A DNA stretch of 45,028 nucleotides from NCBI GenBank assembly GCA_964508365.1, contig CAZDTP010000031.1, forward strand, positions 1-45,028. The letters run 5' to 3'. Below, one piece after another: positions 4,052 through 40,198 of the stretch. The stretch is from an uncultured archaeon (GTDB lineage Archaea > Asgardarchaeota > Lokiarchaeia > Sigyniarchaeales > SOKP01). Made by a program: the position numbers and the translations under genes. The notes beneath the pieces were generated by a model that saw nothing but the letters and a program-made list of their open reading frames with translations, ran no database searches and was not told the origin of the DNA. Within the stretch, counting starts at the first letter, position 1. Every line of letters starts with the position of its first letter.

Positions 4052-4411
4052 TTAATCATCTATGTTCGGAATGTCTTTAATTCGGCTTAAATCCCCTTCC
4101 AATACTTGAATGAGTAAATCTACAGCGTTATCCCATATTGTTTCCATTATTTTTTCGACTTTTTTGAAATCCTCTTCATTTTTGAATTTGAGCGTGATAG
4201 TCTGTCCATCATTATCAATATCTATCTCCATAGGGATATCTTCCCTTAATCCCCCATACATTTTTAACATTATGATGATTTCTTCAGGTTCGGCAATAAC
4301 ACCATCGATGTTATTTTTTATAGTCATTGAAATCGCTAATTTTAACGCATTTGTCTTTATATCTATCGCTTCCTTTAATATACCTTTTAAACTTGGTAAT
4401 AACTCTTCCAT
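4052..4411 (-). CDS. Hypothetical acidic protein (119 aa)
   Basis: ATG-started ORF 10 bp downstream of and co-oriented with the CocE gene; GGTGA RBS upstream; natural composition. Confidence 0.75.
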   Translation of the reverse strand: MEELLPSLKGILKEAIDIKTNALKLAISMTIKNNIDGVIAEPEEIIIMLKMYGGLREDIPMEIDIDNDGQTITLKFKNEEDFKKVEKIMETIWDNAVDLLIQVLEGDLSRIKDIPNIDD

Positions 4412-4421
4412 TATTTATCAC

Positions 4422-6251
4422 CTACTTATTTTCTTTTTCTATAATTGGAATATCGATATAAGAAGGATTTTTTTTATTTCTTGAAATTGTGATAATCGGT
4501 TTTCCTTCAGATGGATATCGTAAGAATGTATCTTTATCTGCTCCAGCAATAGCAATTTTGATTCTGTGTCCTTTTTTAATAAGAACTGAAGTTACGTGTA
4601 AACCGAACTTAACTTCTGTTATTTCTCCTGGAATAAGAGGCGCAGAATCTTCTTTTTTATAGCTATGATATGGAATTAAGATTTTGTAAGGTGGATCATT
4701 GGACAAGATTTTTCTATGAATCAGTCGAAATTGTCCATCAGTTATGTAAGTTATATTTCCGTTTTCATCTACATCCTCGAAATAGGCAAAAATTGCTCCA
4801 TCTTCGTGTGTTGATGTCAAATGTAGGCATAAAACTATTTGTCCAGTGATTTCAGTATCTTCTTCGAATGGTTGACTAGTGTAGCATAATAATTTTTCGT
4901 CAACTTTAATTCTGTTTTCGTATGTTATTGGAAACCCTAATAATGCCCACCATCGATTATTTCGTCCTGTAGTTGCTCGAAAATTAATGTTATATTTATC
5001 ATCTCCGACATCGTTCTCAGGTTTCTCTCTTGTCAAAGTAAAATTCTCGGAAAAATACCATTTTTGATAACTATGCCCTATTGGAGGCCAATCTTCGGAT
5101 TTTTTCCATTTTTCTTCTACTAATGTATAATAATAGATCATTTTCCCTTGTATTCCATCACTATAAATACATTTTTCAAAGAAATTAATCCAAGCGTTCA
5201 CCTTATCTTTTGGTGTTGGTGTCACTGAAGTTCGATTAGGAAAAAATTGATTTGCCGGTAAAGCTGCTCCGTGATTCCAATCACCCAAAATAGCAATTTG
5301 GGGATTTGACAAATTCATGAATCGATGAATAATCGCATCACAATATCCAGAATCTAACCAAGAACACCACGCTAATATTGGAATATTAGACCTTTCAATT
5401 TCATCCTTTCGAGCAAAGATACTGAAATCATCAAATGAAGAACCATCTGGTAATTGATCGTCTCGAAAATCTTCTTCTATGGTATTATCATAGACATATT
5501 GATTAGAACTATGTTGTTCTAATGCTTTATTCAACATTTGTAAATCTTTATCTGTTCTTACTGGCTTTACACCTTTCACAAATAGCCAAGCTTCTGGCAT
5601 CACCTGTCTAAAGACTTTAGGATTGTTTAAATCTAAATTCTTGCCAAGAAATGACCACAATTGAATAAATGCGTTATCAAAACATCCTCCTGGGAACGCT
5701 ACATCGGTATATGGATCCCAAAATCCATGTCCCGGGATTACGGCTTTTATAGCTTGATGGTTGTTCCTCGCAAATAACTCAGCTGTAGTTCCTGTATAAG
5801 AAATACCTTTAGAAACTACATTTCCGTCTGACCAAGGTTGAGCAATAATCCAATCAACTATATCGTATCCATCTTTAACTTCCTCTTCAGAAAAAGGGGT
5901 AATTCTTGAGCCAAATGACGCTCCAGTCCCTCTAACATCAGTATAAATGAGCGCATAACCTCGACTAGTAACCACCTCTGGATTTGGAGCGTTTGATACC
6001 ATACTATCAAGGATCCATCTAAATGGAATTCTCAATTCCATTGCTCTCCAGTACCTTGTTTGCGTTATTACCGTAGGAATTTTACTATCTGGAGAAAGTC
6101 CTTTTGGGAGACAAATAGTAGCAGCAATTTTAACGCCATCTCTTACTGTTATATAAGTTGAATCAACTGTATATCCATCGGTATATTTTTTTTTTGGAAT
6201 TTCACCCAATTCTTTAAAAGGATTATTTTCTATAGCATTTGGATCTGTCAT
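4422..6251 (-). CDS. CocE/NonD family serine hydrolase (X-Pro dipeptidyl-peptidase/acylase fold)
   Basis: VRDGVKIAA, QTRYW, DVRGTGASFG, nucleophile GISYTG, GDWNH and the C-terminal jelly-roll (ITDGQFR...GHRIKIAI). Confidence 0.93.
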   Translation of the reverse strand: MTDPNAIENNPFKELGEIPKKKYTDGYTVDSTYITVRDGVKIAATICLPKGLSPDSKIPTVITQTRYWRAMELRIPFRWILDSMVSNAPNPEVVTSRGYALIYTDVRGTGASFGSRITPFSEEEVKDGYDIVDWIIAQPWSDGNVVSKGISYTGTTAELFARNNHQAIKAVIPGHGFWDPYTDVAFPGGCFDNAFIQLWSFLGKNLDLNNPKVFRQVMPEAWLFVKGVKPVRTDKDLQMLNKALEQHSSNQYVYDNTIEEDFRDDQLPDGSSFDDFSIFARKDEIERSNIPILAWCSWLDSGYCDAIIHRFMNLSNPQIAILGDWNHGAALPANQFFPNRTSVTPTPKDKVNAWINFFEKCIYSDGIQGKMIYYYTLVEEKWKKSEDWPPIGHSYQKWYFSENFTLTREKPENDVGDDKYNINFRATTGRNNRWWALLGFPITYENRIKVDEKLLCYTSQPFEEDTEITGQIVLCLHLTSTHEDGAIFAYFEDVDENGNITYITDGQFRLIHRKILSNDPPYKILIPYHSYKKEDSAPLIPGEITEVKFGLHVTSVLIKKGHRIKIAIAGADKDTFLRYPSEGKPIITISRNKKNPSYIDIPIIEKENK

Positions 6252-6402
6252 TTTTCTCTTAATATTATTTTTTTCAATTAAATTAAATTAGAGTTTAGAG
6301 TTTTTATAGTTTTTATTAAAGTTATGTGATTTATCTTATTCACATAAAGGTTTATAATATTTGAAAATTTTTCTAAAAAAAAAATAAGATGTTGGGGATA
6401 AA

Positions 6403-7125
6403 ATTATTTTTTATGAAATAGAAAAGCAACAAATTCCGCTTGTTACTACAGGAACATCCCCTTTTTTAGGGGCTGGTCAGTTTGGTGCAAATGCTCGAAT
6501 ATACAGAAGAAAATTTTTGAATAACAAGGACGCAGTTTTAGAAATATTGGAAGCAAGCTATGAGGCTGGAGGGCGCGGGATAGAGTTAATACCCGCTGGA
6601 AAAGTTGGCGAGGCTGCGAAGGTTATGGCAGAAACTCACGATGACTTCATAATAACTGGATCCACCTTTCCAGGACCAGATCCCTTAATTTATGAGTTAG
6701 CCAATCTTGATGCAAAATTAATTTTTGCTCACGGAATGGTTTCGGATAAAAAGGATGAGAATTTAGAAAAACTTATTGATGAGATTGAATCAATGGGAAT
6801 AATACCCGGAATTGCGGCTCATAATCCCGTCTCTACCTTAGAATATGCTTTTGAAAATCTACCTTCTGTGAAAGCTTTTTTAATTCCTTTTAACGCTCAA
6901 GGGATGTTTATGGGCGATCAAACAAAGCTAGAGAAGATCGTAGATAGTCATAAAAATTATAATTTTATTGGGATGAAAACGCTTGCAGCAGGGAATTTAG
7001 ACCCAAATCAAGCTTTCGATTACATTTCACAACACAAAATCTGTTGTGTATCAATTGGTATGGTTACTATTGAGGAGGCAAAGGTTTCCACAGAAATTGC
7101 TTTAAAATTTCTTCAAACATCATAA
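6403..7125 (+). CDS. Conserved archaeal TIM-barrel-like protein; true start is upstream of the tracked TTG at 6517
   Basis: Frame is open from 6388 and encodes GTSPFLGAGQFG before 6517. The C-terminal FLIPFN...IGMKTLAAG resembles aldo-keto-reductase-like barrels. Start position uncertain. Confidence 0.7.
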   Translation: MIFYEIEKQQIPLVTTGTSPFLGAGQFGANARIYRRKFLNNKDAVLEILEASYEAGGRGIELIPAGKVGEAAKVMAETHDDFIITGSTFPGPDPLIYELANLDAKLIFAHGMVSDKKDENLEKLIDEIESMGIIPGIAAHNPVSTLEYAFENLPSVKAFLIPFNAQGMFMGDQTKLEKIVDSHKNYNFIGMKTLAAGNLDPNQAFDYISQHKICCVSIGMVTIEEAKVSTEIALKFLQTS

Positions 7126-7153
7126 ATTAATAAAAAACAAAACAATTTTCTTT

Positions 7154-7885
7154 TTATTCTAATTCCTTACCAAAACTCTTATAGATTAAAAAAGCGGCAA
7201 ATGTGGAAACTGCTGGCATTATCAAAAGATAGAAAGTCCGGTAAATCAGGTTATCAAACAAATTATTATATAAGAATAATGAAAAAACCACGGAGAGTTC
7301 TAGAAATACGCTAATTATAAACATATTAATCCTTCGTTTTAGTATAACTCCTTCAAATACTTTTAAAAGCTTAAATGAAAAATATATTTGGGGTATAATT
7401 AAAAAAGTTAATAAAAAAGTCCAACTGAAAATGAGAAAAAACAAGCTAAAGTTAGGTACCCAGTTTGTACTCGAATCATATATTATCCCATTGAAGTAAA
7501 ATCCTATCCAAAGTACATAAGTTGATAAGATTCCATAAAAAATAACAATTAAACGTAATTTCCAATAAGACGATTTCTCATCAAGTTTTACAATTACCCA
7601 ACTAATAATAATTAAAAAACAATGGCTGAAAAAGAAAAAATATATTCCAAATATATAAAGAAAGTATGAGACGGGAGTATTTATTAAAAAAGTTGAGAGT
7701 GTGGCAAGGAAATACGCAAGAGAAACCAAAATAAAGAAGCTACTCAGAGTAAAAGTTGACTTATTTTTAGCTCGCTTAAGTAATTTATAAGCAAAATATG
7801 CCCCATAAAAAATAGGCCATATTTGAAAAATCGAAACAATAGTTAATCTTAAAATAAATTCATTTTGAAATAACAAGTTATACAC
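7154..7885 (-). CDS. 7-TM integral membrane protein (HisKA_7TM-like sensor module without a cytoplasmic output domain)
   Basis: About seven hydrophobic segments, with a layout resembling the TM parts of the 15942 and 21014 genes. Confidence 0.75.
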   Translation of the reverse strand: MYNLLFQNEFILRLTIVSIFQIWPIFYGAYFAYKLLKRAKNKSTFTLSSFFILVSLAYFLATLSTFLINTPVSYFLYIFGIYFFFFSHCFLIIISWVIVKLDEKSSYWKLRLIVIFYGILSTYVLWIGFYFNGIIYDSSTNWVPNFSLFFLIFSWTFLLTFLIIPQIYFSFKLLKVFEGVILKRRINMFIISVFLELSVVFSLFLYNNLFDNLIYRTFYLLIMPAVSTFAAFLIYKSFGKELE

Positions 7886-9119: not shown

Positions 9120-9911
9120 CTATTGTTTTTCTTTTTCACTGGTTTTTAATTTATCTTTTAAAAAGCTGATATTTTCTTCAAGTGTTTTCATTATTGGCTC
9201 GTCTGTTAATTCAAGATTATTAAGAATTTCAAATGCTTGCTCAAATTTATTTAAAGCTTTTGGATAATTTCCTTTTCTATAATATACTCCTGGAATATTG
9301 AAAAACTTGAAGGAGAGCATTTGAATTGATGTAATTAAGATCCAAATAATGATAAGGCTCGTTAATATCCATTCAACAATAGGCTGGAAAGAAAAGAATA
9401 ATACAAAAAAAACGATGACAATTGCCATTCCCAGATAAGATAAATATCTCTTAAACTTAGGACCATTGTAGCTTATTAGTGAGCCTCCCATATACATTAA
9501 ATAACTATATAATCCAATGTAAGCTGATGTCCCTGCAAAACTTACAAACGCTACAAAATAGTGGAACGCGAAAAATAAATCAAGATATGACTTATCAGGG
9601 ATTATTCCTACTAGACCTATACAAACACAGCTGAAAATTGATACCCCAGTAGCTAATCTTCTAATGCTTTCCTTGATATTTATTAGTTCTCTTTCGAGTT
9701 GAATAAAAAAGGGGATACCTAAAGATCCAGCAACGACAAATCCTATACTAAATAAGGTTTTTGCCACTCCCTCTCCTAAAGAACTTACCGTATTTAGTAA
9801 TGGACTATAATTTGGAGTTAAAATAGCTGCAGTTAGTATAAAACTTAATGCAATGATAATTCCTAATAATCCAAACATACTTTCCATTTTATGCTCTATT
9901 TTATTTTCCAT
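9120..9911 (-). CDS. DUF998/Frag1-like multi-pass membrane protein with C-terminal TPR-like helix
   Basis: Y.PLLNTVSSLG, C.GLVG..P and H..VA..SF TM pattern; tail YYRKGNYPKALNKFEQAFEI is TPR-like; AGGTGA RBS. Confidence 0.7.
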   Translation of the reverse strand: MENKIEHKMESMFGLLGIIIALSFILTAAILTPNYSPLLNTVSSLGEGVAKTLFSIGFVVAGSLGIPFFIQLERELINIKESIRRLATGVSIFSCVCIGLVGIIPDKSYLDLFFAFHYFVAFVSFAGTSAYIGLYSYLMYMGGSLISYNGPKFKRYLSYLGMAIVIVFFVLFFSFQPIVEWILTSLIIIWILITSIQMLSFKFFNIPGVYYRKGNYPKALNKFEQAFEILNNLELTDEPIMKTLEENISFLKDKLKTSEKEKQ

Positions 9912-10060: not shown

Positions 10061-10630
10061 ATGTCAAGCAAGAAAGAGAAATTTGTCTTTAAAATAACGG
10101 TAATTGGTGATGGAATGGTTGGTAAAACTTCACTAATTAAGAAATTTACTCACGGAAGTTTTCAAACTGATTATATTCGAACCATCGGTGCCCAATTTTC
10201 TAAATATAATCAAAATATTGAGGGTGATATTTGTACACTTTCTTTATGGGATATTGCAGGACAAGATGAATTTTTTTTTCTACGCCCCTCATTTTATAAA
10301 GAAAGTAAAGCTGCCATTATCGTATATTCTCTTGAGGATAATCAACATGGAAAAGACAGTTTTAAACATATTTCCAATTGGCATAATGATATTAAAAAAT
10401 TCTGTGGAAAAATTCCTATTATCCTTCTGGGTAATAAAGTAGATTTGATTGATAAGAATATTCTTGACGAGTCAAGAATGTTAAAATTGATTCAAAAAAG
10501 AGAATTTTTAGGTCATTTTATAACATCTGCTTTAACAGGTGAGGGTGTTATTGAAGCATTTCAAGTAATTATAAATGAGCTATACCATAAATATAAAAAA
10601 TTAGATGAGTTTCTAAAAATGAAAGTTTGA
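10061..10630 (+). CDS. Rab-like small GTPase
   Basis: G1 GDGMVGKT, G2 TIG, G3 WDIAGQ, G4 NKVD, G5 TSA; no C-terminal Cys prenylation motif. Confidence 0.95.
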   Translation: MSSKKEKFVFKITVIGDGMVGKTSLIKKFTHGSFQTDYIRTIGAQFSKYNQNIEGDICTLSLWDIAGQDEFFFLRPSFYKESKAAIIVYSLEDNQHGKDSFKHISNWHNDIKKFCGKIPIILLGNKVDLIDKNILDESRMLKLIQKREFLGHFITSALTGEGVIEAFQVIINELYHKYKKLDEFLKMKV

Positions 10631-10882: not shown

Positions 10883-13495
10883 GTGATTTTAAAGTTATTT
10901 ATAATAGGTCCTGGAGGGATTCTTTATTATTCTAAGAGTTTTTTTACTCATATTGAAATAGATGAATGTGTTCTTAGTGGTTTTTTGGCTGCATTTAGTG
11001 ATTTTGCAGAAGAGATAAAGGGTGGTGAGGTAAAAGCGCTGCTTTTCAAAGAGTTTAATTTCATTTATTCTTATTCTCTTGAATTCAAATTAATCTTTAT
11101 TATTGTAATAGATAAGGATAGTTTAGAAGAAGAGGCTAAAATAAAAGTGGACTTAATGAAGAACGAATTTATAAAGAGATATGAACAGCATCTTAAAAAT
11201 TGGTCAGGGAATGTCAGTATCTTTGATGATTTTGATAACTTTGTTGAAGAGAATATTTTCATTCCTCCAAAGATCTTAATCACTGGAGAACTTGGAGTAG
11301 GCAAAACAACTATTCTTAACTTATTTTCCGGAGAAATAAGAATAGAATTAGACGATGAGTTAAATCAAGTATTAAAAAAATCTATTAAAATTAAAATTGC
11401 AAATGACATTAAGGAATGTATAATTCGAGAAATCGATCTAAATAACTTAGTTAAATATTATCCTCTTTATAAGGACTTATTAAATTCTATTGATCTAATA
11501 CTTATTATAACTAATTCTGCAGCAAGTAACTTAGGCAGAACGCAAGAAATTATTTCAAAGTTAAAACTTAAAATTCAGAATATCGATTTTTATTTAATAG
11601 CAAATTTTCAAGACCTTGAAGATACCGCATTTAAACCTCAACAAATAGAAGATATATTCGATATAAAGACATATGGATTTTCTGCTATTGAAGATGATTC
11701 TAAAGATAAATTTATATCTATTTTAAATAAAGTTTTAAAAATTTCCAATTTAACGCAAGAAAATAACAGAATAAGTACCTCTCAGGATAATTCAGTGATT
11801 ACTATAACTGAGGAAGCAGAACCAGAAGAGATTCACAATGTTATGGATATCCAAATAGATTATTCGGTCATTTGGGATAAGATTGAAAAAGCACAGATTT
11901 TAGAAAAACAAGGAGATCATATTGCAGCTGCAGAAAAATTTGCTAGCGCGGCGAGTCAATTTAAAAATCTATGTTCCGATATAGAAAATTTACAAGATAA
12001 CAATGAAATGAATGCGATTTATTATCTTTGTAAAGCTTGGGAATGTATGGAGTTAGCTGAAGAACAAAAAGAACCCAGCATGTATGCAGAATCTGCTGAG
12101 TTGTTTAATAAAGCAAGTGAATTTTTTCTTGATTCAAAATATAAATCTTTAGCACTAGGAAATGCGTCATTCTGTCGAGCCTTAGAAATAGGCTCTAAAT
12201 TTGATAAATCAAGTGATAAAACTAAGAAAGCAGAATATTACCCTGAAATTAAAATGATGTTGAGAAAAGCTGCAAATTCATATCGTAAAGGTGGCTTTGA
12301 AAATGAAGCAGATTGGGCTCTCGCAACGTCCACATATTTTGATGCAACATGGTATATTATTAGTGCAGATGAGGAACTCAATCTTGATGAGAAAAAAAGA
12401 CTCCTATATATAGGTTCTAGGATGCTTAAGTCAGCAGCTGAATTATTTGAAAATGCAGGTTATAAAGATAAAGAGAAGGAAGTAAAAGATCGCTTAGAAT
12501 TAGTACAAAAGGAAGAAAAAATCATAATATCTGCTTTAAATACTATTAGTGAACCTTCGATATCTAAAAAGGCAATTTCTGTTTTAAAAACTCCTTTATC
12601 CGGGAAATCAGAATCTCAAAAGAAGTATAAATTGCTTTATAAAGACTTACTCCATGAATATTCTAAAATACAAAAAAGGCAATGTCGGATAGGTATAGCT
12701 CAAATTGGAGTATCCTCTTCAGGCGATTTATTGAGTGAATATTATGAAGAAAAAATGTCTGGTTTGATTGGACTCAAAGCTGAAAAAGTTGATCTAGTGC
12801 AGGAAAAGGTTAGATTGATGATTGAGGAAGCTCACAATGAAAAAATCAATATATTAATATTTCCAGAAATGGCCATTGATCTTAATTATGGCAAAATTTT
12901 AGAAGAACTTTCAGATTTAGCAAAGTCTTATGAAATGTATATTATCCCCGGTTCATTTCATAATTTAGAAAATAATCGTAATACTAGTATAGTAATTGGT
13001 CCAGAAGGCATACTTTGGGAGCAAGAAAAACACATTCCCGCAACCATTCATTTTCAAGGAAAAAGATTTGAAGAAAACATAAATGTCGGGACATTACCCC
13101 GTGAAACTATCATCTGTAATACTGAATATGGTAGAATAGCAATTGTCATATGCAGAGATTTTCTTGATATGGATTTAAGAGTGGAATTAAAGAATTTTGA
13201 ACCTCCTATAGATCTAATTATAAACCCGGCGTATACACCTGTGACTGCCGATTTTAAAGCAGCACATTTTGATGCTCGAAGATCTATTTATGCGTATTGC
13301 TTTTTTGTAAATATCGCAGAATATGGTGAATCTCTTATATACACCCCAGAAAAGGAAAGAGTCGAAAGAATTATCCCTCCAAAAGAAGAAACTTTGATTT
13401 ATAAAGATCTTGATCTATTTAAACTGCGTTCTGAACGTAAAAAATGGGAAATAGAACATAAAAAAAAACATCAATTTATTCAAAGTACTCGATAA
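10883..13495 (+). CDS. Multidomain fusion: longin + degenerate small GTPase + TPR/SNAP-like helical repeats + nitrilase (CN-hydrolase) domain
   Basis: Longin aa ~1-125 (LSGFLAAFSDF...FDDFDNFVE); P-loop GELGVGKT at aa 135; ANFQD and FSA as G4/G5. Ala-rich helical repeats at ~330-560. Nitrilase from aa ~602 (RIGIAQ) with triad FPE662, K716, IC757RD. Confidence 0.85.
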   Translation: MILKLFIIGPGGILYYSKSFFTHIEIDECVLSGFLAAFSDFAEEIKGGEVKALLFKEFNFIYSYSLEFKLIFIIVIDKDSLEEEAKIKVDLMKNEFIKRYEQHLKNWSGNVSIFDDFDNFVEENIFIPPKILITGELGVGKTTILNLFSGEIRIELDDELNQVLKKSIKIKIANDIKECIIREIDLNNLVKYYPLYKDLLNSIDLILIITNSAASNLGRTQEIISKLKLKIQNIDFYLIANFQDLEDTAFKPQQIEDIFDIKTYGFSAIEDDSKDKFISILNKVLKISNLTQENNRISTSQDNSVITITEEAEPEEIHNVMDIQIDYSVIWDKIEKAQILEKQGDHIAAAEKFASAASQFKNLCSDIENLQDNNEMNAIYYLCKAWECMELAEEQKEPSMYAESAELFNKASEFFLDSKYKSLALGNASFCRALEIGSKFDKSSDKTKKAEYYPEIKMMLRKAANSYRKGGFENEADWALATSTYFDATWYIISADEELNLDEKKRLLYIGSRMLKSAAELFENAGYKDKEKEVKDRLELVQKEEKIIISALNTISEPSISKKAISVLKTPLSGKSESQKKYKLLYKDLLHEYSKIQKRQCRIGIAQIGVSSSGDLLSEYYEEKMSGLIGLKAEKVDLVQEKVRLMIEEAHNEKINILIFPEMAIDLNYGKILEELSDLAKSYEMYIIPGSFHNLENNRNTSIVIGPEGILWEQEKHIPATIHFQGKRFEENINVGTLPRETIICNTEYGRIAIVICRDFLDMDLRVELKNFEPPIDLIINPAYTPVTADFKAAHFDARRSIYAYCFFVNIAEYGESLIYTPEKERVERIIPPKEETLIYKDLDLFKLRSERKKWEIEHKKKHQFIQSTR

Positions 13496-13514: not shown

Positions 13515-14018
13515 GTGAATAAAAGTATGTCAATTGACTATGATTTTGTATTTCCGGTCTATATTTACAATGAAATTTTGGAGAAAATTATTGAATTATG
13601 TAAAGCTTCTAGCAACGAAATTTTTGGTTATCTAATTGGAAATATCTTAAAATGGAATGACACTTTATATATTATCATTGAAGACCAACTGTTTATCAAT
13701 AATACTATACATAATAATCGATTCTCAACTTTCCAGATTGAAGGAACAGCCGGGCAATATGAAAAAGAATTTCAAAAGCTAAAAAATCTTAAAAATAATG
13801 ATTGCTTGAGAATAGTTGGATGGTGGCATTCGCATCCTGATTTTGGCTGCTTTTTATCCGACACAGATTTACATACTCAAGAGTTTTTCTTTCCAGAATC
13901 ATATCAAGTCGCATTAGTAGTAGATCCGATTAGAGATGTATTCCAATTTTTCACACTCGAAAAGCAATTAGAATCTAATTATAAAACTATAAGTTATGCG
14001 ATAATATCTTCAAAATAG
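13515..14018 (+). CDS. JAB1/MPN+ (JAMM) metalloprotease, Rpn11/CSN5-like deubiquitinase
   Basis: EIFGYLIG plus GWWHSHPDFGCFLSDTDLHTQ (H105, H107, S115, D118), nearly matching the Rpn11 motif GWYHSHPGFGCWLSGVD. Confidence 0.95.
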   Translation: MNKSMSIDYDFVFPVYIYNEILEKIIELCKASSNEIFGYLIGNILKWNDTLYIIIEDQLFINNTIHNNRFSTFQIEGTAGQYEKEFQKLKNLKNNDCLRIVGWWHSHPDFGCFLSDTDLHTQEFFFPESYQVALVVDPIRDVFQFFTLEKQLESNYKTISYAIISSK

Positions 14019-14047: not shown

Positions 14048-14938
14048 ATGAAAGATAAAAATGATCCATTAGATATTGAAGTAGGAAGAATTGAATTAAT
14101 AGATTCAGATAAATATGATCGTCAAAAACGAATAAAAGGATGGGATCAAAATAAAATTATTAATTCGAAAGTATTGGTGATTGGTGCTGGAGCAACGGGT
14201 AATGAAGTGATAAAGAATTTAGTTTTGGCAGGTGTAGGAACAATTACTTTGATCGATTTTGACTTTATTAATTTATCAAATTTGAATAGATGTGTACTTT
14301 TCAACTTAAAATCCGCAAAAAAAAATCAATATAAGGCGGATGTAATAAAACAAGTTTGTAAAGATTTAAATCCAGAAGTAAAAATTAATACGATTATTAA
14401 GGATTTAAATCAAGTAGAAAAAAGCATTTATAAACAAAATGACGTTATCTGTTCGTGTTTAGATAATGTTGAGGCACGCTTAGAAGCTAATAATTATTCC
14501 TATTTTTATGATATTCCTTTTATTGATTCTGGAATTGATGGGTATTTTGGGACTGTGCAAGCAGTATATTCAGGAATTAAAGATTCAGCATGCTTACAAT
14601 GCGGGATAACTAATAAAGATTTAGATTTAATGTGGAAAAAGTTCTCATGTACAGGAGAGGAACTAAATGGTGAAGATGGAGAAACTACAAGAAAAATCTC
14701 TTCGATTATAACTACTACTTCCATAATAGGCGGCATTCAATCACAACAAACATTAAAATTTATATTAGGACTAGACCATTTTAAGGAATATAAGAGATGG
14801 GATCCTAAAATAGGGAAACCGCTTATTGGAAAACAATTGAATTATAATGGACTTACTAATAGCTTTAAAATAATTGAAAAAGTGAAGGATCCCACATGTT
14901 GGACATGTTCCTATAAAAAACAAAAAGAGGAACAATAA
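14048..14938 (+). CDS. E1-like ubiquitin-activating enzyme (ThiF/UBA fold)
   Basis: YDRQ, GAGATG, KNLVLAG, DFD...SNLNR, CLDNVEAR, two CxxC zinc pairs (CLQC, CWTC) and putative catalytic Cys201 (FSCT). Confidence 0.93.
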   Translation: MKDKNDPLDIEVGRIELIDSDKYDRQKRIKGWDQNKIINSKVLVIGAGATGNEVIKNLVLAGVGTITLIDFDFINLSNLNRCVLFNLKSAKKNQYKADVIKQVCKDLNPEVKINTIIKDLNQVEKSIYKQNDVICSCLDNVEARLEANNYSYFYDIPFIDSGIDGYFGTVQAVYSGIKDSACLQCGITNKDLDLMWKKFSCTGEELNGEDGETTRKISSIITTTSIIGGIQSQQTLKFILGLDHFKEYKRWDPKIGKPLIGKQLNYNGLTNSFKIIEKVKDPTCWTCSYKKQKEEQ

Positions 14939-15008: not shown

Positions 15009-15575
15009 ATGCCAGAATTACCGTATGAAATATGGAAAGATCGAATAAATAATGAGATTAATATTTTAAGAAAATCAAATTTAATAGAGCATAATTCAAT
15101 TAATTGGCGTGAAAATGATGTTGAATTTTGGATCAATATTGAAGCTTTAGGATTTGTGCAAGATCATAATAAAGAGGGTGTTAAATTAATCCCAAAGAAG
15201 TTTCATCGAGTAAATCTAAGAATAAATAGATCCTTTCCATATCCGGGCGGTATAGATTTTTCATGGTATTCTAATATCTTTCACCCAAATATCCATCCAA
15301 TTGACATTCAAGATTTAAATGTATCTGGTTCTGGATTTATCTGCCTTAACATTCTAAAAAAATGGTCAAGGCTATCAGATTTGGAAACAACAATTAAAGC
15401 GTTAAAAAAACTAGTTGAGAATCCAAATGCTGATGATCCTCTTATTTATGACTCCTGTTTAAAAGCAGCGGAGTATTTCAAAAAACATTCTATTGAATCA
15501 CTCAAGGAAGAATATAAATGTAGTGATAAAAAAGATAAAGATGAAACGGATGACATTTTAATAATCGATGAATAA
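15009..15575 (+). CDS. E2-like ubiquitin-conjugating enzyme (UBC fold)
   Basis: FPYP, IFHPNI, catalytic FIC112LNIL, W...DLET.I.AL..L..NPNADDPL; acidic C-terminal tail. Confidence 0.92.
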   Translation: MPELPYEIWKDRINNEINILRKSNLIEHNSINWRENDVEFWINIEALGFVQDHNKEGVKLIPKKFHRVNLRINRSFPYPGGIDFSWYSNIFHPNIHPIDIQDLNVSGSGFICLNILKKWSRLSDLETTIKALKKLVENPNADDPLIYDSCLKAAEYFKKHSIESLKEEYKCSDKKDKDETDDILIIDE

Positions 15576-15621: not shown

Positions 15622-15879
15622 TTACTGCCCACCTACCACTCTTGTCCATAGAGCTAATTTGTCGTCCTCCTTTAACCCAAATTTATGAACTGCGTCAGAA
15701 ATTGTAATTGAATTAGGGAGCTCCTTATCGCTGAGAACTAATGTATATGATCTTTGCTCAGAGTCTATTATACCCATATACTTTATTACAATATCGATTA
15801 CACGCTCAACAATATGATGTTCTTTAACGTCTAGCTTTGTAACCTTACCAGTCCTAGTGTCTTCAACTGATATTCTCAT
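15622..15879 (-). CDS. Ubiquitin-like (beta-grasp) protein precursor ending TRVVGG-Q
   Basis: 85 aa, MRISVE...TKLDV...V..VI..., YTLVL...LP...TI...GLKEDDKLAL.TRVVGG pattern; adjacent to E1, E2 and JAB. Confidence 0.9.
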   Translation of the reverse strand: MRISVEDTRTGKVTKLDVKEHHIVERVIDIVIKYMGIIDSEQRSYTLVLSDKELPNSITISDAVHKFGLKEDDKLALWTRVVGGQ

Positions 15880-15941: not shown

Positions 15942-17000
15942 TCATTTTTTAGGTTTTTCAATTTTTATTGGTTCTTTATCGGTTGATTCAATTTTAAACG
16001 GTTTGGAAGGTTTTGAATTATCTATAGGCCCATTGCAAACCCAACACGCATTTTCAGCATTACTTAGAGCACGAGCGCACTCTTCATGGTATATTGTTTC
16101 ACAATTAGGACAAAGAAAAATATTGAATCCACTAACTTTACCTTTACATATCATGCATATTTTTTGCTCTCTGTAATATGTAACTTCTTCTTCAGTTATT
16201 TGCGCAGGTCTTTTAGTTAATCTAAACAAGGATTCCTCAATTTTCATCTCTTTTTTCTTTTCTTTCTTCTCACGCTTTTCAGGTTCTTCCCTTAAACCTA
16301 AATAGAAAAGCCAAACGGCACTTAATGAGGCAATCCGAATTATTGCAACGATCTCGGCGATACCCAAAAAATCTAACAACGCCGATACATTAAGAATTAA
16401 ATATCCTATTGCTAACTGATGATATTTCTTTCTAACTACCCCTGAAAACCGATAACCTTTAATAAGCATGCCGATCCCAGAAAAAAAAATTCCTAAGAAC
16501 GTAAAAATAGTTCCGATAAGACCGGCAATTGACCCTGTAATAAGACTATCATCGATCAATTCAGCACCAGGAGGGGTAGGTTCAATAAACGTAATGTTTC
16601 CTAATGTATCTAAAAAAATACTAAGCTCAAAAATTAAAGCTAAAGCAATAATTATGATCATGTAGAGTTTTTTTATCTTAGGTATCAATAATTCAGCAGT
16701 TACATAAGATCCAAAGATGTAAGCAACAGGCACAAATGGCCAAATTAAAAAAGCAAGTAAAAATACATTTATGTTGTTTCCTGTTATAAGAATTGATAAA
16801 AAGTCGACACAAATTCCCAAATAAGCTATTCCTATTAAAAATATATTTATCCCCATAATTGAGAGAAGTTTGATATTTGTTTTCCTAGAAATATAGTAAA
16901 AGTATATTCCAAAACTACAAAATGCTATTAGCACGCCCAATGTAGAAGAACCAATAAGTCCACCTAATATAGATAACATAAGCATTCTAAAAATCCTCAA
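15942..17000 (-). CDS. 7-TM membrane protein with C-terminal C4HC3 zinc finger (RING-variant/PHD-like); probable start ATG 16985 (MLMLS)
   Basis: Seven hydrophobic segments, a charged linker, then C-x2-C-x11-C-x2-C-x4-H-x2-C-x10-C-x2-C at 16035..16157. Confidence 0.85.
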   Translation of the reverse strand: MRIFRMLMLSILGGLIGSSTLGVLIAFCSFGIYFYYISRKTNIKLLSIMGINIFLIGIAYLGICVDFLSILITGNNINVFLLAFLIWPFVPVAYIFGSYVTAELLIPKIKKLYMIIIIALALIFELSIFLDTLGNITFIEPTPPGAELIDDSLITGSIAGLIGTIFTFLGIFFSGIGMLIKGYRFSGVVRKKYHQLAIGYLILNVSALLDFLGIAEIVAIIRIASLSAVWLFYLGLREEPEKREKKEKKKEMKIEESLFRLTKRPAQITEEEVTYYREQKICMICKGKVSGFNIFLCPNCETIYHEECARALSNAENACWVCNGPIDNSKPSKPFKIESTDKEPIKIEKPKK

Positions 17001-19084: not shown

Positions 19085-20143
19085 TTATTTTTTCCCTAAT
19101 CTTGAATTTATTATCGTCTCTGCTATGTCGTAGAAAGCATATTCTACATTTTTTCCAGTCAAAGCAGATGTTTCTATATATTCTAAATTTAATTCTTTGG
19201 CTAAAGCTAAAGCCTCAACTAATTTAACTTTTCGTACTTCTGTTAAATCACTTTTATTACCAAAAATATATCCAACCATTTGATGATGGTGTTTTTCCAT
19301 ATTATTCATAACATCATTATACCAATTTTTGATACTCGTAAAGGAAATTCTATTTGTCAAATCAAAAATAAGTAAAATAGCCTCAGAGCCTTGGTAGAAA
19401 TATCTTCTCATCGTCTCGAATTTTGCTTGTCCGGCGATGTCCCATAAGATCATTTCAATAACTCCACTTTTAGCATGAAATATTTTTTCAGTGATACTTA
19501 CTCCAAGAGTGGGAACGTAAGTTCTTAAGAACGCATTATCAGTAAATCGTAGTATTGTAGATGTCTTCCCTACGCCGGGATCTCCAACAACTACGAGTTT
19601 AAACCTATAGTCTACTATTTTTTCTTCTTTACTTCGTTTTTCAGGAAATTCTTTTGATGTTGGTGAAGATATTTCTTTAGTTCTAAAATCTTCTAGTAAC
19701 TTACTGACGCTATTTTGTAGAATTTTAATCTCTTCAAAAATCTTTTCACTTTCTACATTTCGATTCTTTAATTCAATAATTTTTCTCGTTGTTTCATCAA
19801 AGGGAGCCTTAAGGTAATTAATATATTTATAGAAAATCACATCATCTGTCTCTTTAAACAAGAATGTTATCGCGGATCGTGCAAATCCTCCTCTTTTACT
19901 TTCATCTTTTCTTTCAAAATATCTAATTAATCCCTTTAATCTTAAAGAAGGAAAGGGAATGATTAAAAGTGAATCTGGTACAGAACCCTGATCACCTGAA
20001 AGTATTGTCATAGTTTTAATTCCGACTAACATTCTAATAGATTCAGGTAAATTTGATGGTAGCCAATTTATGGGATTAGGACCGAGTTCATCGTCAATAT
20101 CTGTGTATATAACGGCATCAATTAGCTTTTTCAATTTTTTCAC
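19085..20143 (-). CDS. uDENN/folliculin-NPRL2-like longin domain fused to a Rab-like GTPase
   Basis: N-terminal D.DDELGPNP..W.P, IIPFP and KDESKRG; C-terminal GDPGVGKT, WDIAGQ, NKSD, ETSA. Confidence 0.85.
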   Translation of the reverse strand: MKKLKKLIDAVIYTDIDDELGPNPINWLPSNLPESIRMLVGIKTMTILSGDQGSVPDSLLIIPFPSLRLKGLIRYFERKDESKRGGFARSAITFLFKETDDVIFYKYINYLKAPFDETTRKIIELKNRNVESEKIFEEIKILQNSVSKLLEDFRTKEISSPTSKEFPEKRSKEEKIVDYRFKLVVVGDPGVGKTSTILRFTDNAFLRTYVPTLGVSITEKIFHAKSGVIEMILWDIAGQAKFETMRRYFYQGSEAILLIFDLTNRISFTSIKNWYNDVMNNMEKHHHQMVGYIFGNKSDLTEVRKVKLVEALALAKELNLEYIETSALTGKNVEYAFYDIAETIINSRLGKK

Positions 20144-20570: not shown

Positions 20571-21017
20571 ATGGTTAAAAAAATTTTGAAAGGGTTAAAA
20601 TGGACATTTTTAGTGAATTTTATTGTTTTTGTTGTTTTTGGAGTACTTTTATTCTTCCTTGTGGAAGATTATATGGAGTGGTTCAGTATTCCTTTTCTAG
20701 CTCCCGTTGGTTATGGAGGATTATTCGGTGGCGCCCTTTTAGGCTATGCGAGCGCTTCCTTTATAGCGTGGCAAGAGACAGAATGGGAGAAAGTAAAAAT
20801 CCTCGTAATAATGGAGATAGTTTGGCATATGCTAGGAGTATACACTTTTTTTTGGTGGAATATTTTTTGTTGGCCAAATATCTCTATATTATTGCATGCA
20901 AAAATAATGAACTTGATATATCTCATTCTTTTTTCTGGATTCCTCGCAGCATTCATCACTTTCTATATAAAACATGAAAAGGAACAACCACATAATAAAT
21001 CATTTTTGGTAGGGTGA
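20571..21017 (+). CDS. 4-TM membrane protein (tracked ORF starts 20541; ATG 20571 is more likely)
   Basis: Four hydrophobic helices and GGLFGGALLG; GAGGT RBS at 20556-20560. Confidence 0.8.
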   Translation: MVKKILKGLKWTFLVNFIVFVVFGVLLFFLVEDYMEWFSIPFLAPVGYGGLFGGALLGYASASFIAWQETEWEKVKILVIMEIVWHMLGVYTFFWWNIFCWPNISILLHAKIMNLIYLILFSGFLAAFITFYIKHEKEQPHNKSFLVG

Positions 21018-22111
21018 AAGTTAAAATGCTAATGCTTTCTGATGTAGTTTTTTACAACACACTTTTAGAGATTGTGATGTATTTTTTTCCGTCTTTTATA
21101 ATAGGATTATTTTTTATGTTCCAAGGAAGAAAGACAAAAACTAAGCTTCTCTTTTATTATGGGTTAGCATTAATTGGAATTAGCATAACTCTTGGATTTG
21201 GCACTTTCATCGATTTTACAACTATCCTTATAACAGGAAATAACATGGACGGCCAATTAAAACTTTATATATTTTGGGCACCTACTGGTTTTACAGCGCC
21301 CGTTATGGCTTATGTGTGGGCTGAAATATTAATACCCAAGAAGAAGTGGTATTTTTTATCTATAATTTTATTTTTGAATATGCTCAGTTTATTGGATCTA
21401 TTTATATTTCATTGGACGACTGAAATTATTGTACCTCCCATAATACCTGGAGAAGGACTAATAGAAGTCTATTATGATTTGCCAATACCAACGCAAAAGT
21501 TTCCCTTTAGGTGGAATGTATTTACATATTCTTATGCCTTAACCATTGGAGTTGGACTTCTATACAAAGCTTCTGGGACAAAAGGCATATTTAGAAAGAA
21601 GTATATCTATTTATCTATTGGTATTATACTTTATAGTCTCTCACGAATCCTTATGTTTCAAATGGTGCAAGCTTTTGGGGAAGAAGTTCAATATATTTTC
21701 ATGATAATTGACGTGACATCCTTAGTAACTGCTTATTTGGGTTTAAGAGCAGAGCCTGAGGAGCGTAAAAAGAAAGTTAAAAAGAAGATTATAGCTAAAG
21801 ATTCACTATTTCGAATAATTGAAAGACCTGAACAAATTACAGACGAAGAGGTCTCCTATTATCGGGAAAAGAAGATTTGCTTGATGTGTAAAGGAAAAGT
21901 CGCTGGATTTAACATCTTTCTATGCCCTAAATGTGAAGCATTGTATCATCAAAACTGCGCTCGAACGCTTTCTGACTTAGAAAATGCTTGTTGGGTCTGT
22001 AATCAACCGATTGATGAAAAAAAACCCACGAAACCATTTAAAATTGCTGAAGAAAAGAAGATTGTTGAAGATGTAGTAAAAAAAGAGAATAATTCAAAAT
22101 TGGATAAATAG
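21014..22111 (+). CDS. 7-TM membrane protein with C-terminal C4HC3 zinc finger (paralog of 15942..17000); probable start ATG 21026
   Basis: Same architecture; finger at 21878..22000 has identical spacing and 30/41 identity to the paralog; GGGTGA RBS before ATG 21026. Confidence 0.85.
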   Translation: MKVKMLMLSDVVFYNTLLEIVMYFFPSFIIGLFFMFQGRKTKTKLLFYYGLALIGISITLGFGTFIDFTTILITGNNMDGQLKLYIFWAPTGFTAPVMAYVWAEILIPKKKWYFLSIILFLNMLSLLDLFIFHWTTEIIVPPIIPGEGLIEVYYDLPIPTQKFPFRWNVFTYSYALTIGVGLLYKASGTKGIFRKKYIYLSIGIILYSLSRILMFQMVQAFGEEVQYIFMIIDVTSLVTAYLGLRAEPEERKKKVKKKIIAKDSLFRIIERPEQITDEEVSYYREKKICLMCKGKVAGFNIFLCPKCEALYHQNCARTLSDLENACWVCNQPIDEKKPTKPFKIAEEKKIVEDVVKKENNSKLDK

Positions 22112-25154: not shown

Positions 25155-28100
25155 TTGAATAAAAATTCTCCCCACTGTAACTTAAATTTATTAATTTTTA
25201 ATTTTATCAGTATTATAATTATTTTTTTCATTAACGGGGATTATATGGAAAAGTTTTCTAATAATTCACTTTTAAAAAAAAAAATCGTTCTAAGAATAAC
25301 AACTATTATTATTATATTAGTAATATTTCTTTCGAGTAGTTTTCACATTCCAAATTCCAACATTATTACAGAAATTAAGAATGATTTTAATGATTTCTCC
25401 CAAAAACCCTTACTTGCAGATACTGATCTAGTTTTATTTGAAGGAAATGAAAATGCTTTAAATATAACAGATTACGGTAATTTATATGATAATAACCAAG
25501 AGGTGTCTTTAAACAATCAAGAGGAGCTAAATCTAACTTATTATCTTGATGATGTTCATGACTGGAAGGTTTCTAAAATTGAAACTCAAGTAAGTAATAT
25601 TCAAGATACTAGAGATTGGGTTAATAATAGCGATTTTGTAAAAAATGTTACAGTTTATAGAAAAAATGTTGATCTTCATAATAAAGACCCTCCTCCACCA
25701 GGAGATCATAATTATGGTGACGATTTAGATGAAGATCCTACTAATCCAGCTAATATCCATTCTAAAATCTATCAAAACGATGCTCTGGCTATTAGGGTTC
25801 ATTTTGAAATAATAGATTTTGAAGATATTTGGGACTGTGTTTTCATATGGGATAAATATGATAAGTGTTATTACTGTGATACTGGATACAGGACAGATTT
25901 CTATAGCCCTTGGATATTAGGAGAAGGAATAAATATTACTATTGGTTCTGATGATTGGATAGGTTCCAATGAATATGGTTATCATATTGATTATTATGAA
26001 TATATCAACGCAAGCTCTGGAATTTCAGAGAATTTAGCCTTTTGGTCAAATTCCACTAATACAGATAAAGATAATTATGGATCTGGCTGGATTGGAAATA
26101 ATACTGCTATGTACACAGCATTATATTCTTATCCCAATAGATTTGATCATAGTGATTATTTTTCTGCTTCTTATACTAAAGGATATTACTCTGAAATATA
26201 TCAAAATCTAACAATTCCAAGAGGTAAAGTTATTGATGCTTATATTAGTTTTAATTATTACGCTGAATTTGCCATGGAATCAAATGATAACTTTATTTAT
26301 TTTAAAATAAATAATAATAAGGTATATACTTTAGGATTAAGAGATGTTGTCGAAGCTGGGAGGTATAAATGGCATCATACTGGTCAAATTAATATAGATT
26401 TATGGGTGAATACTTCAAATATATTTAATAATCTGATAAATAATCAAAAAATTAATATTTCTGTTGGAATCATGAGCGGTGCTTCTGTTAGTTATTCTGG
26501 TTTTCAAGATGCATATCAACAAGTGATATGGTTCGATAATTTATCTTTATTACTTACTACACTCGCAAATTCAAGTCAAAACGATATAAATCTTAAGTTA
26601 AATGAGTATTCTCTTAATCAAGGAGACCAATGGGGGGAATCAGAGTTAAACATTACGGGGACTTGGGATGTTAATCCTGTAGTTCTTAAAGTAAATACAA
26701 GTTCTCCTTCACTTTCTTTTGATTTGGACACCTACTTGTATGGATATCACGAAACTACTTCACGGATTGGGCAAACGACGCTTGAAGGAGTCTCTTTTGA
26801 AATCTTAGAAAATGGGACAGTGTATTGGTATTTTTCACATAATTTTTTTATGCCTTCGCAATACTCAGATTTTGAATTCATCATAAATAAACCTCTGAAT
26901 TGGGAGTTTATCTACGCCCTAGATCCGACCCTTCTTTCTCGTCTTTTTGAAAATGGAAATGTAGGTGATTCAATATTAAAAATCAATAAATCAAGTGCTC
27001 TTTTCCTGGGTTGGTGGTCATTTAAAGCAAGATCTCCAAATTATCTTGATATCGAAAATACAAAGATGTTGAAACAAGATGAATGGTCACGCACTAGTTT
27101 TAATACCGGCGAATCTACACGAATTAAAACACAAGTAAATTACAGTGGTGAAATCCCTAGAAATATAGAGTCTACAGAAGTAAACTTAACGATATCTGAT
27201 CCCGATGGAAAGCAGTGGTATTCAGAAATGAAATCACCCTTGTCAAATGGAAGTGTGTTCTTTTCTGAAATATATTTTGATGCATTAAATACAACCGGAG
27301 GACAATATGATTATACATTATTCTGGTCTAATGGCACTTCTCTGGGAGGATTAAACTCTAGTTTTTTAGTATTACATCAGAGTTCATTCTCACTTATTAA
27401 ACCTAATGATGCAATTTCTGATTTTCAAACTGACGCGTTTATTGGAGATATTATACCAGTGCAAATAAAATTAAAAGATTCTGAAAACAACAATTCCATT
27501 TCAAATGCAATAATTTCATATAATTGGACCTCGGGAACTTTAGATTTTGATGAAGCAGGTTTAGGAATTTATGAGACCATTTTAGATACATCAGATTTGA
27601 TATCAAATGGTTTTTATGAGATTTTAATTGAATTCTCAAAAGTAGGTTTCTTCGATTATAATTTGACTTTGAAAATTAACCTTAGAGAGGAAACTAATGT
27701 CCAGCGAATTCAGTCTGATTATAATATAGAGTTGCACGCAAATAGCACAATAAAATTTAGATATCATTCATTTTTAGATGGAGAAGGAATTGATGGAGCA
27801 AATGTAGGCGTTAATATATCAAATCCTGATTTATATAGCATTGAAAATCTACTTGGTGGTTATTATAATATTGAATTTGATACTTCATTTACCGATAATT
27901 TAGGTATAATTCAGCTTAATTTCAATTTTTCAGCTCCTTCTTTTGAACCTCAAATGCATATTTATCAATTTGAGATTGTAGAACAAAGTGTCAACATTAC
28001 TGCTTATGTTGATAATGTAGAAATTCAACAAAATTCAATTATTGAACTTACATATATGGAAGAGATAAATATCTCTACTCAAGCTAGAGCCTTGATTGAT

Positions 28101-39400: not shown

Positions 39401-40198
39401 ATGATTGATCCTTATTCTTTTACTTCAATTAAACAATTTTTTTTAGAGATTTACAACTTATTTAAAGAATCGAATTCCGAAGTTACCGAATTGTGGTTCG
39501 AGTTTTCCGACATTGATTTTTTTAAGACTTTTGACAAATATGAACTCCAAGATTATATAAAAAGATTTGAATTTATTACAATTCAAAAAGGAAATTACAT
39601 ACCTTACGTTGTAATTGACAAAATTGCATTTATTACGAGATGTTTCAACTATTTGGACTTAGATATAAACCAATTATCATATTTATTAAATTACGACGGT
39701 TTTGAAGCTCTCATTCAAGAGATTTTATCTCAAAATCATTATAAGACAATAAAGAACTATAGGTTTGCAGATAGATCTAAGTTAAAATATGAAACTTCTC
39801 AAAAACGATATGAAATTGATGTTATAGGAATCTATCAGAATTACATCCTAGTTATAGACGCTAAACAATGGAAACGTAAAGATTCTTATTCTGCAATGAA
39901 CAAGGCTGCAAATTTGCAATATCAGAGAGTAAAAGCCCTTAAAAAAAATCCTGAAATTCTATCTAATTTGATTCAAGAAATCTTAGGTTTAACCTATAAT
40001 TATAAAAAACGCTTACCATTTATCCTAATTCCGCTTATGGTTACAATAGAATCAAATTGGATAAAAATTAATGAAAATTCAGTTCCTCTTGTGGCAATTC
40101 TAAATTTGAACTCATTTTTACAGGAATTATCAGCAAACTTGCAATATTTTAAAACTGTTAATGTTGAAAAAATGACTGTACAAAAGCAGTTACATTAA
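39401..40198 (+). CDS. PD-(D/E)xK (Mrr/NERD-like) nuclease-fold protein
   Basis: FEALIQEIL...Y, RYEIDVIG.....LVIDAKQW and LQYQR. Confidence 0.8.
   Translation: MIDPYSFTSIKQFFLEIYNLFKESNSEVTELWFEFSDIDFFKTFDKYELQDYIKRFEFITIQKGNYIPYVVIDKIAFITRCFNYLDLDINQLSYLLNYDGFEALIQEILSQNHYKTIKNYRFADRSKLKYETSQKRYEIDVIGIYQNYILVIDAKQWKRKDSYSAMNKAANLQYQRVKALKKNPEILSNLIQEILGLTYNYKKRLPFILIPLMVTIESNWIKINENSVPLVAILNLNSFLQELSANLQYFKTVNVEKMTVQKQLH

Follow-up and report, generated by a model that had tools for sequence, protein, structure and literature searches.

A stretch of 45,028 nucleotides (nt) from an uncultured archaeon of the Sigyniarchaeales (Asgardarchaeota; Lokiarchaeia; GenBank assembly GCA_964508365.1, contig CAZDTP010000031.1, positions 1 to 45,028), here called the window, carries a gene at 10883-13495 (+) whose product combines a longin domain, a GTPase-like domain, a helical module and a nitrilase domain, and which is followed by the genes of a ubiquitin-type system. 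We lean towards the interpretation that this fusion protein is an effector enzyme whose activity is regulated and which is bound to an accessory module of ubiquitin and membrane-RING proteins, and that its substrate is probably a small molecule. At the sequence level, the head of the protein (the N-terminal 300 residues) is orthologous to a free-standing protein of ~298 amino acids (aa) that heads JAB-E1-E2-ubiquitin operons in sister genomes. The nitrilase module is a promiscuous, exchangeable C-terminal cassette, and its closest characterised relatives by profile are DRT1/UG1 and UG5, nitrilase effectors that are associated with reverse transcriptases (RTs). A literature search on Asgard archaea retrieved no published description of the fusion family or of the longin-GTPase that forms the operon head.

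Architecture of the longin-GTPase-nitrilase fusion protein

The gene forms one uninterrupted frame of 870 codons with zero internal stops in a window of ~30% G+C, and the start residue of the protein is shared by its orthologues (MILK...). Conservation was assessed in an alignment of 22 full-length orthologues with 60-77% identity. The same four-module architecture was present in >30 proteins from NCBI, JGI, ENA and Logan assemblies and at 20 genome loci, and two closed chromosomes were among its carriers. All named relatives belong to Asgard archaea (Promethearchaeota/Lokiarchaeia, and metagenome-assembled genomes labelled Hermod-, Hod-, Thor- and Heimdallarchaeota). The original prediction, which had been made from the letters of the window alone, had claimed a single-ORF (open reading frame) fusion of four modules. 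The intact frame and the recurrence of the architecture bear this out, and the motifs quoted in that prediction (GELGVGKT, REIDLNN, ANFQD, FSA, E662, K716 and C757) were all located at the claimed residues. The features of the gene are as follows (AF2, AlphaFold2; pLDDT, predicted local distance difference test score).

10883..13495, +, whole fusion gene, 870 aa, GTG start: longin, switch-less G domain, helical module and nitrilase
10883..11257, +, longin-fold domain, residues 1-125 (AF2 model, structural matches)
11258..11758, +, Arf-like G domain, residues 126-292 (profile and structural matches, orthologue alignment)
11285-11308, +, P-loop GELGVGKT, residues 135-142
11426-11446, +, G3 site REIDLNN, residues 182-188, no DxxG
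11600-11614, +, G4 ANFQD, residues 240-244 (NFQD motif)
residues 266-268, +, G5 FSA
11759..11848, +, acidic variable linker, residues 293-322 (pLDDT <50, poor conservation)
11849..12550, +, helical module, residues 323-556, nine antiparallel helices, TPR/Bro1-like
12551..12652, +, conserved linker, residues 557-590, with EPS... and KYxLxYxD motifs (orthologue alignment)
12653..13474, +, nitrilase-superfamily domain, residues 591-864 (Pfam, PADLOC and PDB profile matches)
nt 12866, 13028, 13073 and 13151, +, catalytic tetrad E662, K716, E731 and C757, respectively
13475..13492, +, FIQSTR C-terminal tail, at, or 1-3 residues from, the carboxy terminus

The head (residues 1-300) was modelled with AF2 from 49 sequences (pLDDT 83; predicted template modelling score, 0.72). 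In this model, residues 1-125 follow the longin order of two strands, a helix, three strands and then helices. Structure comparison matched them to the CPLANE protein 7q3d_C (Z 14.8, root mean square deviation [rmsd] 2.6, 125 residues aligned) and to the TRAPP protein 3cue_A (Z 13.9, 127 aligned); these residues gave no Pfam hit and no sequence-profile hit for longin. Residues 126-292 were best matched by Arf1 (Z 18.1, rmsd 2.4, 151 aligned), and PDB profiles identified Arf-family chains with an E-value of 2.6e-8. Invariant among the orthologues are G135, G140, K141, T142 and T143 of the P-loop (GxxxVGKT) as well as N241, Q243 and D244 of the NFQD motif, in which Phe stands in place of Lys. 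The G3 site reads REIDLNN, REIDLEE or QEINMEE, D185 is replaced by Asn in 4 of the 22 sequences, and none of them has a Gly at the DxxG position, in agreement with the impaired switch that had been predicted. The G domain is best described, from these alignments, as a derived pseudo-switch that keeps the P-loop and the putative guanine-specificity residues.

Free-standing relatives of the head, proteins of ~298 aa, yielded 189 matches. The closest of them are 48-57% identical over residues 1-295, share REIDL.. and NFQD, have likewise lost DxxG and lie directly upstream of a JAB gene; they end after the G domain, whereas the fusion protein adds ~570 residues of helical module and nitrilase. More distant free-standing heads keep NKQD, and one, P0255, keeps WDFGGQ. 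Since these distant relatives retain such motifs, the loss of switch II is derived and specific to this clade. A feature search of the ESM Atlas pointed to bacterial hypothetical proteins of ~297 aa (score 0.95). Asgard genomes are rich in longin-GTPase fusions (preprint 10.1101/2020.10.19.343400), and the head resembles Asgard Rag-like longin-GTPase fusions, SRX/SR-beta and Mon1-Ccz1/TRAPP in placing a longin domain beside an Arf/Rag-like G domain. It differs from these pairs in that the longin domain comes first, the switch II motif is missing and an enzyme is attached.

The full-length AF2 model, built with 22 close orthologues, had a mean pLDDT of only 56, and use was made solely of its helical module and G domain. 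The helical module reached pLDDT values of 80-94 within this otherwise poor model. Its best structural match was the Bro1 domain of ALIX, which is weak (Z 14.6 but rmsd 6.3), and its best sequence match was a designed CTPR (E 0.019), both within the range expected of helical repeats. As both matches are weak, we call the module TPR/Bro1-like and nothing more. A PDB profile search with it returned nothing specific and no match to the helical repeats of DRT1. The linker that follows contains seven residues that are invariant in the orthologues (E557, P558, K581, Y582, L584, Y586 and D588) and is of low confidence in the model. Gating by a membrane, a further element of the original prediction, is not indicated, as the fusion protein is without any hydrophobic segment.

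The C-terminal domain was recognised by the Pfam profile CN_hydrolase (PF00795) over residues 641-850, with 34.4 bits against a gathering cut-off of 23.2 (E 2e-8), and the profile gave 37.8 bits for the fusion protein in a whole-genome search. E662, K716, E731 and C757 are invariant in the orthologues; the predicted complete triad E662-K716-C757 is thus confirmed in 22 of 22 sequences, and E731 aligns with the second Glu of Nit2. In 33 diverse members of the family, the tetrad is invariant or nearly so, with the exception of P0158 (FPD; Gly for Cys), and all 33, bacterial ones included, end in the near-invariant FIQSTR tail. The PADLOC profile RTasNitrilase matched residues 591-831 with 56.5 bits (E 5.9e-16), above the 34 bits of the Pfam profile. 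A family profile was further compared with the PDB, which resulted in 43 matches with E <=10. These include Nit2 (E 2e-6, partial), the DRT1 nitrilase 9yfd (E 4.4e-6), beta-ureidopropionases, carbamoylases, NAD (nicotinamide adenine dinucleotide) synthetases and pantetheinases, and no chain named N-terminal amidase is among them. The DRT1 structure was the sole match that spanned the whole nitrilase domain, and its C1116 falls on C757. The same family profile scored 37 bits against a Pseudoalteromonas protein that is annotated as RT-domain-containing and that we took as an RT-nitrilase, and only 6-7 bits against the two ordinary CN hydrolases of this genome, which score 138 and 91 bits in Pfam. 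A homologue search with the nitrilase domain only returned Asgard fragments and no bacterial stand-alone relatives. These profile comparisons suggest a moderate, not exclusive, affinity to the RT-associated defence nitrilases.

In DRT1, a helical-repeat region precedes the nitrilase, through which the protein oligomerises; oligomerisation is required, and a conserved tail at the C-terminus is swapped so as to lie over the adjacent active site of an enzyme whose substrate is unknown (PMC13275509). Defence by UG5 depends on the Cys of its nitrilase (PMC13436386). The fusion protein resembles DRT1 (UG1, 9yfd) and UG5 (DRT11) in its C-terminal nitrilase with catalytic Cys, preceding helical region and conserved tail, and in that the nitrilase would be the effector part of a larger regulated protein. 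Both known systems contain a reverse transcriptase, which is present neither in the fusion protein nor in its locus; therefore, the fusion protein is not a DRT. Its regulatory part consists instead of the longin domain and the switch-less GTPase, and its context is an archaeal ubiquitin operon. Moreover, the FIQSTR tail is unrelated in sequence to the tail of DRT1, and the helical module has no detectable similarity to the DRT1 repeats.

Exchange and capture of the nitrilase module

Recombination of the modules was followed in an exhaustive search of 1.8 billion representative proteins. Across that search, the nitrilase domain, at 41-69% identity, formed the C-terminus of several kinds of protein, namely TPR proteins of ~1275 aa, MalT-like TPR proteins and NosD/beta-helix proteins of 1616-1800 aa; one AAA_16 protein bears the module internally. 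Fusions of the nitrilase to an alpha/beta-hydrolase were found in high-G+C sequences. One of them, P0190, is AKF05140.1 of Sandaracinus amylolyticus (Myxococcota), and four metagenome proteins (P0167, P0184, P0187 and P0189) share its architecture and, like it, end in F(I/V)QSTR. The genome of the window encodes a TPR paralogue of 1272 aa on contig C4 (L087:8389-12207, ~92388-96206), the nitrilase of which is 68% identical to that of the fusion protein and which ends in LFIQSTR. A divergently transcribed GPP34/GOLPH3-like gene (L087:7102-7707, Pfam GPP34 E 8e-12) lies upstream of this paralogue. TPR-nitrilase genes also occur in tandem arrays, with four genes in L067:3843-19651 and three in L029:7910-19676 (~1278 aa each). 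Within these arrays, the TPR parts are 36-42% identical, whereas the nitrilase parts are 62-78% identical.

The position of the nitrilase can be taken by a TIR domain. Locus L058 contains a gene (4394-7756) for a protein of 1120 aa that has the same TPR scaffold with a TIR_2 end; the next gene downstream encodes a TPR-nitrilase, and a JAB-E1-E2-ubiquitin cluster is at most 2 kb away. Seven database proteins (P0163, P0169, P0172, P0173, P0182, P0198 and P0219) likewise carry a TIR_2 end on this scaffold. The G-domain scaffold shows the same exchange: L088:10305-11258 (-), beside the gene for the ubiquitin-like protein of a sister operon with a free-standing longin-GTPase head, encodes a protein of 317 aa in which the switch-less G domain (52% identity, NFQD) is joined to TIR_2. 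Because TIR was found on both TPR and G-domain siblings, nitrilase and TIR are alternative C-terminal modules on both scaffolds. In P0212 (1326 aa), the TPR scaffold and helical module are followed by a KaiC-like ATPase end instead of a nitrilase. A variable scaffold with an exchangeable C-terminal effector is also typical of the TPR- and NTPase-scaffolded TIR effectors of prokaryotic conflict systems, and TIR versions occur on the same Asgard scaffolds; the fusion protein differs from these in that its effector is a nitrilase.

The helical module of the fusion protein and the last such module of the 1272-aa TPR paralogue share 49% identity. In a quick tree with midpoint root, the head-fused nitrilase domains formed one group among the TPR types (Shimodaira-Hasegawa-like approximate likelihood ratio test support, 92), consistent with one event in which the head gene acquired both the helical module and the nitrilase. 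In this lineage, the adaptor gene has taken over the terminal helical module of the Asgard TPR-nitrilase family together with its linker and nitrilase. Of 300 Asgard genomes sampled, 95 contain the nitrilase module, in 1-7 copies per genome; the carriers represent 5 of 30 families and include 12 of the 27 genomes from the window's own genus. For the head, 41 genomes of this genus were searched and 13 carried it (fused in 4, free-standing in 8 and in both forms in one, G150), and several genomes that are reported to be 100% complete lacked it in a single-query search.

The ubiquitin-type gene cluster and its conservation

The neighbours of the fusion gene are listed below (TM, transmembrane). 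The JAB gene begins 19 nt past the stop of the fusion gene.

9120..9911, -, DUF998 membrane protein, conserved upstream neighbour (13/18 orthologous loci)
10061..10630, +, Ras/Rab-like small GTPase, 189 aa, upstream neighbour (Pfam Ras E 1.5e-40; 14/18 loci)
13515..14018, +, JAB/MPN metalloprotease, Rpn11-like, with intact HSHP...S..D motif
14048..14938, +, E1-like ThiF enzyme (Pfam ThiF E 2.3e-49)
15009..15575, +, E2-like enzyme with HPN and a Cys, most divergent of the genome's three E2 genes
15622..15879, -, ubiquitin-like protein ending in ...VVGG-Q
15942..17000, -, multi-TM protein with C-terminal RING/PHD-like finger, most constant neighbour (16/18 loci)

Conservation of these neighbours was determined at 18 orthologous loci with flanking sequence. 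The RING gene was present at 16, the Ras and ubiquitin-like genes at 14 each, the DUF998 gene at 13 and JAB, E1 and E2 at 12 each, compared to counts of 0-4 for the same neighbours at 56 paralogue loci; TPR-nitrilase genes almost never adjoin ubiquitin genes. At five orthologous loci (L002, L011 and L017-L019), the RING gene is kept beside the fused gene and JAB-E1-E2 is missing. At least one of these, L019, belongs to the same assembly as L091, where a free-standing head stands with JAB-E1-E2-ubiquitin on another contig. Free-standing heads lay directly upstream of JAB-ThiF in all four close loci examined (L088, L089, L090 and L091). A UQ_con gene comes next after JAB-ThiF in L088, L090 and L091, and L091 has an extra copy of the head in between. 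The RING gene at 16 of 18 loci and the four free-standing heads upstream of JAB-E1 confirm a physical tie between the fusion gene and ubiquitin genes. The distant free-standing relative with intact G motifs, P0255, does not lie in a ubiquitin operon of this kind.

The residues that follow the Gly-Gly of the ubiquitin-like protein differ among the orthologues (S, QL, NL, YSY, YYKH, LEYNY, IR, Y or none). The C-terminal extension is therefore a variable pro-peptide. A Pup-like role of GGQ, in which the nitrilase or JAB would act on the terminal Gln, was considered and rejected, as the post-GG residues are not conserved. PADLOC matches of the JAB and E1 proteins to JAB and E1-E2 models of the CBASS (cyclic oligonucleotide-based antiphage signalling system) type were not counted as evidence for defence, because they are unspecific and score below the Pfam hits.

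The genome, an assembly of 149 contigs, has three E2 loci. The other two E1/E2 loci are on contigs C3 (~61800-64200, with a weak JAB-like match as well) and C6 (~43500-46400), and their E2 genes reach 93.5 and 88.9 bits with UQ_con versus 35.8 bits for the E2 of the window. Given its patchiness within the genus and its place as one of three E2 loci, with the most divergent E2, the ubiquitin system of the window is accessory. An archaeal ubiquitylation operon with E1, E2, RING and Rpn11 is known from Caldiarchaeum subterraneum (PMC5654768), and the two clusters are alike in the pro-ubiquitin extension, JAMM protease, E1-like and E2-like enzymes and RING-type finger. The window's cluster differs in that the RING finger is on a multi-TM protein, in the longin-GTPase head, which is here fused to a nitrilase, and in being one of three E2-containing loci and patchy in its genus.

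Several further genes of the window were recorded. A paralogue of the multi-TM RING/PHD-like protein (~43% identical) is encoded at 21014-22111 (+), and a third copy is on contig C8. At 19085-20143 (-) lies the gene for a Rab/Ras-like GTPase that is extended by ~175 aa at its N-terminus; it has homologues on contigs C73 and C21, and many orthologous loci likewise have it downstream of their ubiquitin cluster. The genes at 37110-38558 (-), 40219-41268 (-) and 41399-42373 (-) encode two Rag/Gtr1-like GTPases and, between them, a protein with a zinc ribbon and a Roadblock/LC7 domain; one of the two GTPases has an N-terminal extension of ~170 aa. A transglutaminase-core protein (35857-37083, +) and a NERD nuclease-related protein (39401-40198, +) are encoded near them. 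The ORF at 25155-30407 (+), of 1750 aa, has no Pfam match at E 0.001. The window contains no tRNA genes, and a Pfam scan of 37 of its ORFs gave no hit to an N-recognin.

Possible functions and their implications

For an effector enzyme tethered to an accessory ubiquitin module, the following mechanism can be proposed. The G domain would bind a nucleotide as a fixed cofactor, without switching, and the head would be a docking site, through which the fusion protein would bind the ubiquitin machinery or the multi-TM RING ligase and act there as adaptor or substrate. The nitrilase might be active only upon oligomerisation, in which, by analogy to DRT1, the tail of one protomer could cover or complement the active site of the adjacent one. 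C757 would attack the amide or nitrile group of a substrate that is conserved and ubiquitous; a small molecule, such as an amide derived from NAD or a nucleotide, seems likelier than a protein N-terminus. The whole module may then constitute a conflict or stress-response system and not part of core proteostasis.

A number of observations weigh against this interpretation. The sequences are conserved far above the level of typical immune effectors, and the neighbours are eukaryote-signature trafficking genes, which also fit a cell-biological role. No RT domain was found in the fusion protein, the scanned window ORFs or the called genes of related loci, and Pfam searches of the scanned ORFs and PADLOC revealed neither phage genes nor an integrase nor any recognised defence gene around the locus. 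The profile affinity is also ambiguous in part: a metabolic enzyme of Agrobacterium scored 29 bits with the family profile, between two presumed RT-nitrilases, the lower of which, an E. coli plasmid protein with 19 bits, is annotated as 'hypothetical' and was taken as an RT-nitrilase. A tblastn search of plasmids gave six weak matches, in which metabolic CN hydrolases and RT-linked proteins appeared at the same E-level; because of this mixture, BLAST alone cannot place the nitrilase domain. Finally, the nitrilase domain has a pLDDT of ~25 in the sole model that covers it, and the patchiness within the genus rests on metagenome-assembled genomes and single-query searches.

A bolder version holds that the JAB-E1-E2-ubiquitin operon with the longin/switch-less-GTPase head is an archaeal immune or programmed-response system, in which ubiquitin-like tagging and the membrane RING protein control exchangeable toxic nitrilase/TIR effectors that attack a central metabolite such as NAD. 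We advance this only tentatively and consider it rather unlikely.

The serious rival is a housekeeping role, in which the nitrilase is a metabolic or lipid amidase or acyltransferase on trafficking-type scaffolds and the ubiquitin link serves turnover or membrane targeting only. The very high sequence conservation speaks for such an enzyme, and Ras/Rab-like GTPases and membrane proteins, typical Asgard trafficking genes, are nearby; a GPP34/GOLPH3 homologue stands upstream of this genome's paralogue, some metabolic CN hydrolases score like RT-nitrilases, and mobile-element or defence genes were not found in the vicinity. A housekeeping function is harder to reconcile with the patchy occurrence within one genus, complete genomes included, with tandem multi-copy arrays whose repeat regions diverge faster, and with the substitution of TIR for the module on two different scaffolds. 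The best profile match is a defence-associated nitrilase model, and the genome already holds two canonical CN hydrolases. On balance, we regard this role as unlikely, though it deserves to be taken seriously.

It is less plausible still that the nitrilase acts on the ubiquitin-like protein or its conjugates, as a Cys-dependent isopeptidase, a deamidase or a transamidase that makes a ubiquitin thioester from an amide bond. Nitrilase chemistry proceeds through a thioester acyl-enzyme, and Lnt passes an acyl group to an amine, so that such reactions are chemically conceivable. The tight linkage to the ubiquitin-like, JAB, E1, E2 and RING genes and the synthesis of the ubiquitin-like protein with a C-terminal extension would also suit an activity of this type. 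This extension is, however, variable or absent, and an intact JAB is available for its removal (PMC5654768); paralogues with a near-identical catalytic domain lack ubiquitin neighbours, and bacterial homologues are joined to esterase-like domains.

The original prediction had proposed an Nta1-like protein N-terminal amidase that acts on Asn/Gln to create degrons for the adjacent ubiquitin system and is gated by the GTPase-like head. A nitrilase fold is also known from yeast Nta1, which shares with the fusion protein nitrilase-superfamily chemistry and a functional tie to ubiquitylation. In the fusion protein, the tetrad is intact and the gene lies 19 nt upstream of JAB-E1-E2 in conserved synteny. 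Unlike in Nta1, the module is common to non-ubiquitin proteins and is swapped with TIR. The same module, 62-78% identical within a genome, occurs on paralogues without ubiquitin neighbours and in bacterial alpha/beta-hydrolase fusions, and siblings carry TIR in its position. At the five orthologous loci described above, RING and not JAB-E1-E2 remains adjacent; the 43 PDB matches contain no named N-terminal amidase, and an N-recognin was unseen in the Pfam hits of the scanned window ORFs. Because the catalytic domain is shared nearly unchanged with non-ubiquitin proteins, TIR can substitute for it, the post-GG residues vary and an intact JAMM protease is available to mature the ubiquitin-like protein, we consider an Nta1/N-degron function very improbable. 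Together with the profile affinity to defence nitrilases, the module sharing and the TIR swap mean that this part of the prediction was not borne out. An assembly chimera or decaying pseudogene can practically be dismissed, as the frame is uninterrupted, the architecture recurs in >30 independent assemblies, two closed chromosomes and many loci, and the catalytic and P-loop residues are all invariant.

Several RT systems of bacteria depend on nitrilase domains as effectors against phages; the Asgard nitrilase family, which is large, extremely conserved and spread over many scaffolds, could help to find the substrate of these domains. One class of Asgard ubiquitin operons is accessory, led by a switch-less longin-GTPase and wired to exchangeable nitrilase or TIR effectors. 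Some 'eukaryote-like' ubiquitin clusters may thus be conflict or stress modules and not forerunners of housekeeping proteostasis. Small-GTPase-type adaptors, ubiquitin tagging and effector enzymes would be linked in the closest archaeal relatives of eukaryotes. If the immune-system reading is true, the operon would be an Asgard counterpart of eukaryotic ubiquitin-regulated innate immune signalling, and the orphan 'defence nitrilase' would gain a tractable, highly conserved model enzyme.

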